Below are positions 9,860-13,273 of a stretch of 32,856 bases of DNA, piece after piece; within the stretch, counting starts at the first letter, position 1, and the number at the start of each line of letters is the position of its first letter. The position numbers and the translations under genes are program-made. The DNA is taken from the IMG/VR virus record IMGVR_UViG_2526164692_000012; one strand, written 5' to 3'. The DNA comes from a virus (Duplodnaviria; Heunggongvirae; Uroviricota; Caudoviricetes). Under the pieces are notes generated by a model, which did not search any database, was not told the DNA's origin, and saw only the letters and a program-made list of their open reading frames with translations.

Positions 9860-10091
9860 GTCAATATTTCCTAATCCGATTTGTTGATACCGAAGCCCTG
9901 ACTGTTCCCGCAGTTGGGGCTTCACTGTTTTGATTTCTTTGCCGCATCAAGCATCACTTCTGAAAACGTGCGCTTGCCACTGAATACTCTTTCTCTTCTC
10001 AATTTTTCGTTCGTGCCAAATGATTCGCCATGAACAAAATTTGGTCTCAAAATGGTAAGCGCAATCTCTTTGACTACTGCATCCAAGCAAA

Positions 10092-10232
10092 TCACACTGT
10101 TACCCCCTCCCTCTTCAGGCTGTCCAGCACCCGTTTAATTACTTCTGCGCTGAATGAGCGACACTCTTCCTTTGCTTTTTCTTCAAGAATTTTTTCTAGC
10201 TTCTCTGGCATACGCAGTGTTTTTACCTTCAT
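10092..10232 (-). CDS. arc: Arc-like ribbon-helix-helix repressor, 46 aa
   Basis: Hand-translated ORF MKVKTLRMPEKLEKILEEKAKEECRSFSAEVIKRVLDSLKREGVTV (below the 60-aa ORF-track cutoff); RHH pattern; located immediately upstream of ant and divergent from mnt. Confidence 0.6.
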   Translation of the reverse strand: MKVKTLRMPEKLEKILEEKAKEECRSFSAEVIKRVLDSLKREGVTV

Positions 10233-10337
10233 TGCATCCTCCGTTGTATGTGGTACGCATACATAGTATTTAGGTACGCATTGATAGTCAATAGATACCT
10301 ACATATCCTGTGGTAAAAAATTATTCAGGATGCGCCG
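10233..10337. promoter_or_regulatory. Divergent arc/ant and mnt promoter-operator region (putative)
   Basis: 105-bp AT-rich intergenic region between divergent arc and mnt; contains direct repeats GGTACGCAT (10252..10260, 10272..10280) and TGTGGTA (10249..10255, 10309..10315) that may be operator half-sites. Confidence 0.45.
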
Positions 10338-10589
10338 ATGTCTGATCGTAAGTACAAAAACCCTCAAGTGAATCTGAGGCTTCCTGTAGAGATAAAGGAA
10401 CGTCTTATTGAACTGGCTGAGGCTAATTCTCGTTCATTAAATGCTGAGATGGTAGCAGCACTTGAGGCATGGACTGAAAAAAATAAACATATTCAAGCAC
10501 TAGATCTTGCAACTATAGCATCGCGGTTGATAGAGCTTGAGCATGAGGTTGAGAAGTTAAAATGTATGCATGGCAACAGTGAAAAATGA
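10338..10589 (+). CDS. mnt: Mnt-like ribbon-helix-helix repressor, 83 aa
   Basis: N-terminus with RLPVEIKERLIELAEANSRSLNAEMVAAL resembles P22 Mnt (same length, RHH followed by coiled coil); divergent from arc-ant. Confidence 0.7.
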   Translation: MSDRKYKNPQVNLRLPVEIKERLIELAEANSRSLNAEMVAALEAWTEKNKHIQALDLATIASRLIELEHEVEKLKCMHGNSEK

Positions 10590-10900
10590 AACGTATCGCT
10601 ATTTTGTTAATATTGTTCTTCTCTACAATAGTTTTCGCCAAACCAAAATCAGATAATGGCGATCTTAAAGGCCTGCAAGAACTCATGATAACTTCGAAAT
10701 TTGCTGGCATGTGCGGCACAATCAAACAAATGGCAACATTTCAAGAATCAACAAAAATGCCTGGCGGAGATGAGTTCTTACAGCGTTTTCTGACCACAGA
10801 GCAAGCAAGACTAGGAATGAATCCACAGGAATTTCTTGAAGCATGCCAGAAGTCAATTTCAGCTTATACCAATTATTACAATCTAACTTCTGATAAATAA
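10586..10900 (+). CDS. Small secreted protein of unknown function, 104 aa, signal peptide
   Basis: Start overlaps the mnt stop (ATGA); N-terminus MKRIAILLILFFSTIVFA is a typical Sec signal peptide; AT-rich. Confidence 0.6.
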   Translation: MKRIAILLILFFSTIVFAKPKSDNGDLKGLQELMITSKFAGMCGTIKQMATFQESTKMPGGDEFLQRFLTTEQARLGMNPQEFLEACQKSISAYTNYYNLTSDK

Positions 10901-10925
10901 TAGAAAGGATTTTATAAATAACTTT

Positions 10926-11411
10926 ATGAAAAAATCACTATTAATTATCCCGCTTCTGCTGGCTGGATGCGCAAAAGTAAGTGACTACCAAGCAAGTTGC
11001 GAACAACGCTATCCAAAGCTTAGTGATATGGCTAATTGCCTTGATGCCAGCGTGAAGAACGACTCACGCATGGCATCAGCACCAACACCTAAGCTGTATG
11101 TCCTTGCTGCGAAGATGCTCGGGCAAGGTGTCGATCAAGGCAAGATAAGTGACGCACAGGCAAGACTTGAGCTACAGAATCTTTATGTTCAATTACAAAG
11201 CCAAGAACAAGCCCAACAAATAGCACAAAGCCAAGCATTCCAGCAGGCTTTATTGAATTATCAGGCTGTAAACACAATGCAAGCGATCGAGCAAAAAGCG
11301 CGCCAGCCTGTTATAACTCAACATTACCCAACACGCGTTGACACATATACAAACTGCAATTCAGGATTTGGAAACACGGTAACATGCAACAGTAGCAGTA
11401 ATATCAGGTAG
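10926..11411 (+). CDS. Lipoprotein of unknown function, 161 aa
   Basis: N-terminus MKKSLLIIPLLLAGC has a lipobox (LAGC); Gln-rich coiled-coil-like middle region; Cys-containing C-terminus. Confidence 0.6.
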   Translation: MKKSLLIIPLLLAGCAKVSDYQASCEQRYPKLSDMANCLDASVKNDSRMASAPTPKLYVLAAKMLGQGVDQGKISDAQARLELQNLYVQLQSQEQAQQIAQSQAFQQALLNYQAVNTMQAIEQKARQPVITQHYPTRVDTYTNCNSGFGNTVTCNSSSNIR

Positions 11412-11425
11412 TTATATCTTATCTT

Positions 11426-13273
11426 TTATTGCTGTTCTGCTGTAATTTGGCTTGAAAGTATAGGGCGTATCGCATTTGCAGCATTATTTAGCGCTCTTTC
11501 ATAAGCTGGCGTTCCAGTTTTAGTGTTTGCCAGGCGTAAGAGAGCATTCCTTGCTGCTTTGGACTCATACAAGCGCATCATTGCACCAAAACCAGCCTCA
11601 AGCCCCATTGATACGCCAAGGGTCGCAGTTGCGCCAATCGTCCTTATCCTGTTGGCTTGCGATTGCCCCGTCTGAGTTACTACATTTGCGGTGTCTGACC
11701 TTGCTGTTTGCTGTAGAACTTCATGAAGAGCATCAAGCTCTTTCATGTGCTTTCCAGAAAAAATAGTGTTGTAAATTTCACCGCCTGACTGAGATTTCAG
11801 CTTATTAACTTCAGTGATGAACTTGGCTGGAGAGTCCCCTGCCTTTTCCGCTATTTTGCTGACGTAAGCTGCACGCATAGCATCTTTCCCCTTATCATCC
11901 AGTGCGCTCCAGATTCGTTTCACGTCAGATGGTTTTCTGCTTAATACAACGGTATTTATAAGTTCAGGACTGGCTTCACTGCTTGCCTTGTTGAGCTTGT
12001 TGGCAATGTTTTTATTAAGCACCTTATTATAAACGTTTGCATAATCGGAATTTGCTTTAAGGTATTTTGCTGCGTCTGATGCACCGAGGTTTTTAGCAAC
12101 TGCGTTACGAAGGTCTTTTGACATTGCATTCTCTACCATATTGGTAGCTGCTTTTGCCTGGTTGGGGAAGACCATAGCATCTCCCTGAACATTAGATCTA
12201 AATGCTGTTCTGTGCTGACGCAAGAGATCAAACGTAACATCCAAATCAGTTGCAGGGTTTGCTAATTCTTCACGTAGGTTACGCAAGGATGTAAGCAGGC
12301 TTTGATTGGCAGACGTCCCAAGCCGTTCCTGTCTTGCGATCGCTGTATTCAGAGCATTCATGGTATTTGTGGTATCAACTGCGGCATTACCCATTTTATT
12401 GGTGACGTCATTGATAACAGCGCCAGCGGCATCCTTCCGCCCCCTTAACGTGGTGGTAAGAGATTTCACCACATCATCAGGGTTGTACTCACCAAAACGG
12501 TCAAAATAATTACTTACCAGCTTACTACGCGTTGCATATTGCTCCGCTCGCTTTGAGCCTGTCCCGAGCAAAGCCCCCTCGGCATCCTGAGTTAGGCCGC
12601 GAGTAAAAGCATTTTTCGGCCGGATAACATCAGATGTCATTGGTGTCACGCCCATCGATTCTGATGTGGCAATTTTCTTCGCCACTTCTGGCGCAATATC
12701 ACCTTTTATAGCCGTTATTCCACGCCCTATTCCCTTTGCTGCTGCGGAAAGAACACCCTGAGCGGCAAGGTTAACTCCGGCATTTTTAGCTGCATTTTGT
12801 GCGAAATCGCCTTTCTGATTTGCGGCCTCTGCCAGTGATCCAATAGCCATGCTTCCTGCCGTTCCAACTCCTGGAACTAAATACCCACCAATTGTTTCTC
12901 CAGCTTGCGCATAAGGGTCTGTCGGTCGATCGACAGGGCGATAAACATCATCCAAAACCTTGGGGCCACCAAGACCCTGACTGATTGCATTAATCAGACT
13001 TGCGCCACCCTGCAATACGTCAAATGGTATGTTTACCAGACCACGACCAGCCTGTTCTGCAATTTGCCCTGCACTTTGACCACCAGTGAGCCAATCGCCA
13101 GCTTGTTGCATCAATGATGGTTCTTCACGTGCTGGTTCATTATTGGCCTGATTAACTGTTTGTTGCTGAACAGCCTGACCAGCAAAATACTCATCAATGG
13201 CGGTGCCAATATCTTCCGTGCTCGTACCATCAGGGAAGGTAAATGTCTTACCGTTTGCAGTTACTTTCATCAT
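11426..13273 (-). CDS. Ejection (DNA-transfer) protein, P22 gp16-like, 615 aa
   Basis: N-terminus [30 protein letters not shown] resembles P22 gp16; position and length fit. Confidence 0.75.

Follow-up and report, generated by a model that had tools for sequence, protein, structure and literature searches.

What occupies the place of the superinfection-exclusion gene sieA in a P22-like prophage that carries other genes there, and do those genes act together? The question is raised by a 32,856-nucleotide stretch of DNA (IMG/VR record IMGVR_UViG_2526164692_000012; hereafter the window), which derives from a P22-like (Lederbergvirus) prophage and is, over region 10300-11450, 100% identical to Escherichia coli O104:H4 outbreak genomes (2011C-3493, C227-11, HUSEC2011). 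Between the repressor gene mnt and gene 16, which encodes an ejection protein, it holds two small open reading frames (ORFs), here called ORF1 and ORF2. Judging from sequence and position, ORF2 is most aptly called a prophage envelope moron and a candidate exclusion protein, and ORF1 an exported protein without a close known relative; the two are independent, separately mobile modules and not an obligate pair. The interval would be an mnt-ORF1-ORF2 transcription unit lodged in accessory slots of the immI region, and it would have arisen by the fusion of two independent lysogenic-conversion ('moron') genes.

The mnt gene (10338-10589, + strand), on the simplest reading the first gene of the unit, encodes an 83-aa Arc/Mnt-family ribbon-helix-helix repressor (Pfam Arc PF03869, E=2.9e-10). 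ORF1 (10586-10900, +) starts at an ATG that overlaps the mnt TGA as ATGA (sequence gaaaAATGAaac) and specifies a 104-aa exported protein. A 25-bp junction (10901-10925, +) leads to ORF2 (10926-11411, +), the gene in the sieA slot, which encodes a 161-aa lipoprotein precursor. The slot is bounded by the convergent gene 16 (11426-13273, -), 14 bp from ORF2. The order in P22, read in the direction of mnt, is mnt, orf59a, the mnt terminator, PsieA, sieA and gene 16. The first-pass annotation of this DNA, made from the sequence alone, had given the coordinates of both ORFs, the start on the mnt stop codon and a position in the sieA slot. The ORF list and the sequence agree with it, and comparison with P22 places ORF2 at sieA and ORF1 at orf59a. 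That both products are exported is also borne out by prediction, ORF1 by a Sec signal peptide that obeys the -3/-1 rule and ORF2 by a canonical lipobox. The description of the genes as AT-rich stands in that their GC content lies below that of the flanks (37-40% versus 42-50%), but the difference is mild. The absence of a recognised family was confirmed save for two PHROGs of unknown function, phrog_19844 for ORF1 (E=7.1e-64 over 1-104/105) and phrog_6067 for ORF2 (E=4.1e-109 over 1-161/161). RefSeq lists the products as 'hypothetical protein' (WP_000820795.1) and 'lipoprotein' (WP_000749286.1), respectively. Searches of Pfam (E<=1), NCBIfam and PADLOC with both proteins gave nothing above noise, profile searches of PDB sequences matched neither, neither matched a known fold, and literature searches on accessions, locus tags, PHROG ids and key terms turned up no work on the two proteins. 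Both are nevertheless real genes, because each has a conserved family and a ratio of nonsynonymous to synonymous substitution rates (dN/dS) of 0.04-0.18; the same evidence rules them out as chance ORFs. The pairwise values are 0.18 for ORF1 (against an allele 72% identical) and 0.04 for ORF2 (against its ortholog in phage Gally, dS 0.28), and both genes are under purifying selection.

The relation of ORF2 to sieA is clearest in its relatives. In locus L026 and its relatives, the stretch that takes in orf59a, the terminator, PsieA and the ribosome-binding site (RBS) is near-identical to P22 as far as AAAACTAAGGAG, after which the ORF2 frame follows instead of sieA. Of the 85 nt that precede P22 sieA, eighteen ORF2 loci keep 79 at 95-99% identity, the match ending 10 nt before the ORF2 ATG, and the leader TAAGGAGAG-N7-ATG is retained in about 74 of 85 ORF2 loci. 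A single copy of sieA together with those 85 bp gives full exclusion (Leavitt et al. 2024, PMC10883804). By alignment, then, ORF2 in most relatives takes over exactly the stretch that codes for SieA, with PsieA and the sieA RBS kept in front of it. Such a clean swap makes ORF2 a candidate, and a testable one, for a novel phage-exclusion protein. SieA itself was absent from about 140 ORF1 or ORF2 loci, as judged by tblastn with P22 SieA and by its FxRYPxEAxxFNK motif.

The placement recurs well beyond E. coli. In every close-family ORF2 locus examined, the gene sits in the interval bounded by the gp16 and tailspike genes of a P22-like prophage; these loci come from E. coli, Salmonella, Citrobacter, Morganella and Xenorhabdus (in the last three, gp16 is PF26808 and the tailspike PF09008), and in Morganella the ORF2-family gene is the sole gene between the two. 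The close family as a whole is confined to Enterobacterales, where it spans at least 10 genera. A third type of cargo is found in the enterotoxigenic E. coli (ETEC) strain L4_E1441 (L006 4374-4686, +), where an intact 85-bp P22-type PsieA fragment (98.8% identity) precedes a 75-aa protein with two predicted transmembrane (TM) segments, with neither sieA nor ORF2 present. The cargo of the slot is thus consistently an envelope protein, since SieA belongs to the inner membrane, ORF2 is a lipoprotein and the third a two-TM protein. The gene 16-mnt gap more broadly appears to collect small envelope-directed genes. A second lipoprotein family, unrelated to ORF2, occurs there on the opposite strand (139-143 aa, lipobox LSGC, a weak PEGA-domain match at E ~0.004 and a hydrophobic C-terminus), at L001 3448-3867 (-), which is Gally GALLYPH_14, at L097 4558-4989 (-), and at L103, L104 and L106. 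In strain LF82 this gene is transcribed above the ORF2 ortholog, at log2 values of up to 11. In L098 (about 4090-4275, +), a small ORF of about 60 aa beginning MKNILIGFVFGAACAASISVIAAQIVGG… and lying between the 72% ORF1 allele and ORF2 has a hydrophobic N-terminus and is possibly another exported peptide.

The first-pass annotation had further regarded ORF1 and ORF2 as a two-gene cassette. Taken as one obligate two-component exported system, the pair fails on distribution. ORF2 is present in 186 of 5426 complete E. coli genomes (about 3%), and the ORF1 family in 61 (18 at >=95% identity and 43 at 60-80%), but the two are adjacent in only 18, so that about 168 of the 186, or some 90% of ORF2 carriers, are without ORF1. 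Among the best 80 ORF2 loci in IMG/VR, ORF1 is present in only about 12 and missing from about 66; what lies upstream of ORF2 in the rest is a different mnt allele, orf59a or a lipoprotein gene on the opposite strand. ORF2 without ORF1 is likewise seen in phages Gally, vB_EcoP-720R6 and VSe13, the 72% ORF1 allele is mostly unaccompanied by ORF2, and distant ORF1 homologs are solitary. What speaks for a pair is that ORF2 comes after the close ORF1 allele (>=95%) in every case (18 of 18 E. coli genomes and 10-12 IMG/VR loci), and that the block is kept beside several different gp16, ant and tailspike alleles. Because it sits beside such differing alleles, one ancestral fusion inherited as a block is the simplest explanation, and descent from that single event accounts for the linkage. 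A further point in favour of pairing is locus L126, where an ORF1 homolog directly follows the gene for a lipoprotein whose C-terminal hairpin is similar; this is a single case, and the lipoprotein has no detectable homology to ORF2 (hhalign probability 11%). Taken together, an obligate system is very unlikely. The window's arrangement, with ORF2 25 bp behind ORF1, is a minority form present in 11 of about 85 ORF2 loci; most IMG/VR loci hold one gene alone.

L126 deserves a brief description as the sole hint of recurrent lipoprotein and ORF1 pairing. On this GC-rich (64%) phage contig, interval 3606-4653 (+) carries a 125-aa lipoprotein ending …NCTSYGVGGTVQTNCR, the ORF1 homolog and a small two-TM protein, in that order, flanked by opposite-strand genes resembling those for large virion proteins. 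The lipoprotein was considered as an ORF2 relative and rejected: BLASTP and hhalign were negative beyond the signal peptide, and the two have just the C-terminal hairpin pattern in common.

The fusion has left its mark on the window. Homology of ORF2 to the usual leader begins only about 10 nt before the ATG, and PsieA is gone, as is the TAAGGAGAG ribosome-binding site. Compared with its relatives, the window arrangement is a derived form, stripped of ORF2's own promoter and of its Shine-Dalgarno sequence. A scan found no promoter- or terminator-like site from the Pmnt-like site (10281-10309) to the end of ORF2, including no internal ORF2 promoter inside ORF1. An mnt-ORF1-ORF2 transcript from Pmnt is therefore the simplest reading, as the first-pass annotation had proposed for both genes, and ORF2 translation in the window would be coupled or re-initiating. 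In this lineage ORF1 would thus also pass on to ORF2 the transcription that starts at Pmnt, and possibly ribosomes as well. A different source of transcription operates in adherent-invasive E. coli (AIEC) LF82, whose prophage Gally carries a 98% identical ORF2 ortholog (LF82_138/GALLYPH_13). There an opposite-strand gene separates mnt from the ortholog, and its transcription does not come from Pmnt. The near-identical ortholog is transcribed in the LF82 lysogen: after overnight growth in lysogeny broth (LB) it has 70 normalised reads against a prophage median of 15.6 (PMC9928086 Tables S1, S4). Its log2 values are about 8 in vitro (B1, B6) and 10.3 (MB1) and 8.6 (MB6) inside macrophages, while the adjacent gene 16 reaches only 3.6-4.1 (PMC9928086).

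The protein encoded by ORF2 has the features of a lipoprotein, with the outer membrane as its predicted destination. Its N-terminus, MKKSLLIIPLLLAG|C-A-K, contains a signal peptide (10926-10970, +) that ends in the canonical lipobox LLAGC (L-A-G-C in alignments A1 and A5), which fits [LVI][ASTVI][GAS]C. Cys15 is invariant in alignment A1 (35 sequences) and present in >=90% of A5 (50 sequences). Under the Lol +2 rule, a lipoprotein without Asp at position +2 is sorted to the outer membrane; ORF2 has Ala there (relatives have Thr, Val or Gln), and outer-membrane sorting is therefore predicted. The N-terminal helical domain (residues 16-92; 10971-11201, +) is followed by a Gln/Ala-rich helical linker (about residues 93-127; 11202-11306, +) that ends at an A-R-Q-P joint, and then by a tail of type A (11307-11408, +) with a disulfide-type hairpin, TNC-x3-G-x-GN-TVTC-NSSSNIR. 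AlphaFold2 (AF2) models the helical domain with confidence (residues 18-70, predicted local distance difference test score (pLDDT) 84-91) and a long Gln/Ala-rich helix (76-125) whose confidence is low beyond about residue 100. It leaves the tail disordered, including the hairpin-like T-N-C-x3-G-x-GN-x-V-x-C (C144, C154). No hydrophobic TM segment occurs past Cys15, and the modelled helices are soluble and amphipathic. From the Lol +2 rule and residue conservation we infer the outer-membrane location and the disulfides. A weak match of ORF2 to GspK (E=8e-4; cut-off 130 bits) was rejected, as it falls in the Gln-rich helix, and a Cronobacter record named 'GspK' among the ORF2 relatives is probably the same artefact.

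The reading that we favour, with some reserve, is that ORF2 is an outer-membrane-anchored exclusion factor against P22-like phages and the counterpart of inner-membrane SieA; we consider this a substantial possibility that falls somewhat short of being probable. ORF2 would interfere with the trans-periplasmic conduit made by the ejection proteins gp7, gp20 and gp16, or alternatively would mask an outer-membrane secondary receptor from the periplasmic side. The likeness to P22 SieA is positional and regulatory. ORF2 occupies the same slot, on the strand opposite gene 16 and next to that gene's 3' end, and many of its relatives use the SieA promoter fragment and RBS, though the PsieA leader is missing in the window. 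Like SieA, it is a prophage-encoded envelope protein of about 160 aa, limited to P22-like prophages and never found together with sieA. The proteins themselves differ: ORF2 has no sequence similarity to SieA and lacks the FxRYPxEAxxFNK motif (including in the window-type locus L004), and SieA (types A-C) is an inner-membrane protein with 3-4 TM helices and no signal peptide, whereas ORF2, a lipoprotein with a lipobox, lacks TM helices. Exclusion, demonstrated for SieA, is predicted for ORF2. A further parallel is offered by Llp of T5 and Cor of phi80, N15 and HK022, small lipoproteins of phages that stop superinfection while working on the periplasmic side of the outer membrane. Their size is comparable to that of ORF2, which is predicted to carry the same targeting signal; homology could not be detected, and the PHROG match to Cor (phrog_1119, E=0.078) covers ORF2 residues 1-29 only. 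Moreover, Llp and Cor act on FhuA against siphophages, whereas the phages that carry ORF2 are O-antigen-specific podophages.

Several observations weigh against exclusion. No similarity of ORF1 or ORF2 to any known exclusion protein was found. The dN/dS of 0.04 denotes strong purifying selection, while proteins engaged in an arms race often show diversifying selection. The slot and promoter in common with sieA may be merely a convenient insertion point. The distant family member L146, which sits among housekeeping genes (uvrC, UDG, EarP and bio genes), argues for a general envelope role that phages could have borrowed for the benefit of the host. Within the window, ORF2 has no recognisable Shine-Dalgarno sequence, the nearest purine-rich element being AAAGGA, 17-18 nt upstream. 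Finally, the authors of the LF82 study set a moron cut-off of 5-fold, and the ORF2 ortholog, at 4.5-fold, was not called a moron (PMC9928086).

ORF2 is one member of a broader, unnamed family of lipoproteins. A profile of the ORF2 N-domain, searched against 1.84 billion representative proteins, retrieved 139 clusters at 50% identity, 59 of them at E<=1e-10. Nearly all are lipoproteins of 120-160 aa in which the domain begins at the lipobox Cys. In an alignment of 50 members, Q22, C25, C38 and A79 are invariant, and C15, C144 and C154 are present in >=90%; the C-terminus follows T-x-C-x3-G-x3-4-C-x1-3, with Y, F, W or R as the last residue. These 50 members share no family in Pfam or NCBIfam. 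Another distant member, L148, lies on phage- or plasmid-like DNA (DnaB, LPD37), and a conserved partner gene sought beside distant members was not found. In the close family, about 25 clusters have tails of type A (…CNSSSNIR) and about 51 of type B (…C-x-S-Y/F; …TTNCTTYGNQTRCQSY). Two members, P0007 and P0039, are 96% identical over residues 1-128, and their tails differ beyond the A-R-Q-P joint; on such alignments the C-terminal tail is modular and swapped at this conserved joint. A bolder proposal, which we regard as rather doubtful though worth stating, is that ORF2 represents a new class of exclusion protein: a lipoprotein anchored in the outer membrane that lets short-tailed, O-antigen-specific phages adsorb but then halts them, with its specificity set by its C-terminal tail, within a general gatekeeper family. 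ORF2 would then jam the ejection conduit, either while it is being assembled or as it crosses the outer membrane and periplasm, and which phages or which host partner are recognised would depend on the swappable hairpin (…CNSSSNIR in type A, …CxSY in type B). The 139 clusters would constitute an envelope 'gatekeeper' module of phages, plasmid-like elements and chromosomes.

The chromosomal members beside housekeeping genes, together with the strength of purifying selection, are equally what would be expected if ORF2, and perhaps ORF1, served lysogenic conversion for host benefit, altering the envelope with respect to serum, macrophages, stress or permeability and having no role in exclusion. 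Models for such a function are TraT and lambda Bor/Iss, outer-membrane lipoproteins that mobile elements encode and their carrier cells express; in addition, TraT keeps out OmpA-specific phages and bars conjugative entry. ORF2 has no Pfam match to Bor or TraT and differs from them in architecture, its helical N-domain being followed by a Gln-rich helix and, at the C-terminus, a disulfide hairpin. Members of the ORF1 family in Methylophaga, Nitrosomonas, Pseudomonas and Vibrio likewise have non-phage contexts. The Gally ORF2 ortholog is up-regulated in macrophages (log2 fold change 2.55, q=4.7e-27), but mnt and the tailspike gene of Gally rise alongside it; because neighbouring genes rise together, the induction is regional and not specific to ORF2. 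Deletion of the whole of Gally left the macrophage survival of LF82 unchanged (PMC9928086). Moreover, all members of the ORF2 family that were found within Enterobacterales occupy the gp16-tailspike gap of P22-like prophages, where they stand in for sieA. On this balance host benefit without exclusion is possible but, in our estimate, unlikely.

A further explanation, modelled on Llp, which in T5 blocks the receptor late in infection, assigns ORF2 to the phage's own cycle, in the protection of progeny from debris or in lysis and release. P22 sieA is itself up-regulated on induction (PMC10883804), and ORF2 has weak PHROG matches to an Rz-like spanin (E=0.052) and to Cor. These matches (E=0.05-0.08) were rejected, since they span just the signal peptide and lipobox. 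ORF2 also lies far from the lysis cassette, its place in the immI/sieA gap, neither within nor beside that cassette, setting it apart from Rz1-type outer-membrane spanins, and its ortholog is transcribed while the late genes are silent. Such a role is improbable, and exclusion remains our preferred reading of ORF2.

ORF1 presents a separate problem. Its N-terminus, MKRIAILLILFFSTIVFA|KPK, is by the -3/-1 rule, read by eye, a typical Sec signal peptide (residues 1-18; 10586-10639, +). In the AF2 model (pLDDT 78) the mature part forms three helices (24-56, 61-76 and 80-102). Invariant in the family are C43, C87 and the loop motif FQESTKMPGGDEF, at the turn between helices 1 and 2 (FQESTKMPGGDEFxxRF); a C43-C87 disulfide likely joins helix 1 and helix 3. 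ORF1 would thus be a separate Sec-exported, three-helix periplasmic protein that works alone, and its invariant loop FQESTKMPGGDEF would probably bind a conserved periplasmic target. We infer, on this basis, a stand-alone periplasmic binder. Small periplasmic binders and inhibitors include Ivy, PliC/MliC and type VI secretion system (T6SS) immunity proteins. ORF1 may be likened to these in being small, Sec-exported and stand-alone on mobile DNA, with a disulfide pair and a strongly conserved loop. It has no sequence or fold match to them and is all-helical, so that the comparison is an analogy and not a classification. P22 orf59a occupies the same place, immediately downstream of mnt in the mnt transcript, but encodes a 59-aa basic protein of unrelated sequence with no signal peptide, whereas ORF1 is exported and overlaps the mnt stop. 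The 72% allele is coupled to mnt by the same ATGA. More distant homologs occur elsewhere in the gene 16-mnt gap of P22-like prophages and, outside these phages, as lone small genes in Yersinia and in the four genera named above.

Two of these distant loci have unusual surroundings. In Methylophaga (L132 2022-5700) the ORF1 homolog lies within a run of short same-strand ORFs (a TPR protein, an Excalibur-domain protein and others) that adjoins a divergent tyrosine recombinase with Phage_int_SAM_4 and Phage_integrase domains. Judged by gene order, the layout looks like an integron cassette array. In a prophage-like region of Pseudomonas monachiensis (L134 3932-5872), the homolog lies about 400 bp upstream of a gene for an LRAT/NlpC-P60-type protein and also near a cell-wall hydrolase (PF07486); from this single case, ORF1-family proteins may be related to peptidoglycan-active enzymes.

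The interest of the locus lies in the finding that a lipoprotein unrelated in sequence takes the place of sieA, in many relatives behind the sieA promoter; its carriers include the prophage of the 2011 O104:H4 outbreak strain, Gally of AIEC LF82 and about 3% of complete E. coli genomes. If ORF2 does exclude phages, it would offer a second handle, at the outer membrane, on the passage of the P22 ejection proteins across the envelope, and it would bear on host-range prediction for podophages used in therapy or typing. If it serves the host instead, pathogenic E. coli would have in it a prophage lipoprotein that is widespread and induced in macrophages. Either way, two uncharacterised families of exported proteins are now defined by their domain limits, invariant residues and genomic contexts. 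For a region known as mosaic this is not startling; what it adds is a candidate second exclusion mechanism against short-tailed phages, in a notorious pathogen.

On the other side of mnt, the tailspike gene (6901-8880, -), ant (8981-9925, -) and arc (10092-10232, -) precede two putative promoters found by consensus scan, each with 9/12 matches: the Pmnt-like sigma-70 site (10281-10309, +) and a divergent Pant-like site that overlaps it (10291-10263, -). Their layout over 10263-10309 agrees with the annotated Pmnt/Pant pair of P22. The sar antisense RNA (9861-9926, +; Rfam, 63.7 bits) is full-length and covers the ant start, and the immI switch therefore looks complete. Farther upstream, a tRNA gene (3298-3369, +; Rfam) just before the integrase ORF (3498-4691) is the likely attachment site. 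Between the integrase and the tailspike, an acyltransferase-family gene (4908-6830, +; RefSeq WP_000178979.1) is probably an O-antigen-modifying conversion gene, and as such a further surface-altering function of the prophage. As a mechanically called ORF, ant has a GTG start and 314 aa (8981-9925), whereas the RefSeq coding sequence is shorter (8981-9859); the choice between these starts falls in the region of overlap with the sar RNA.

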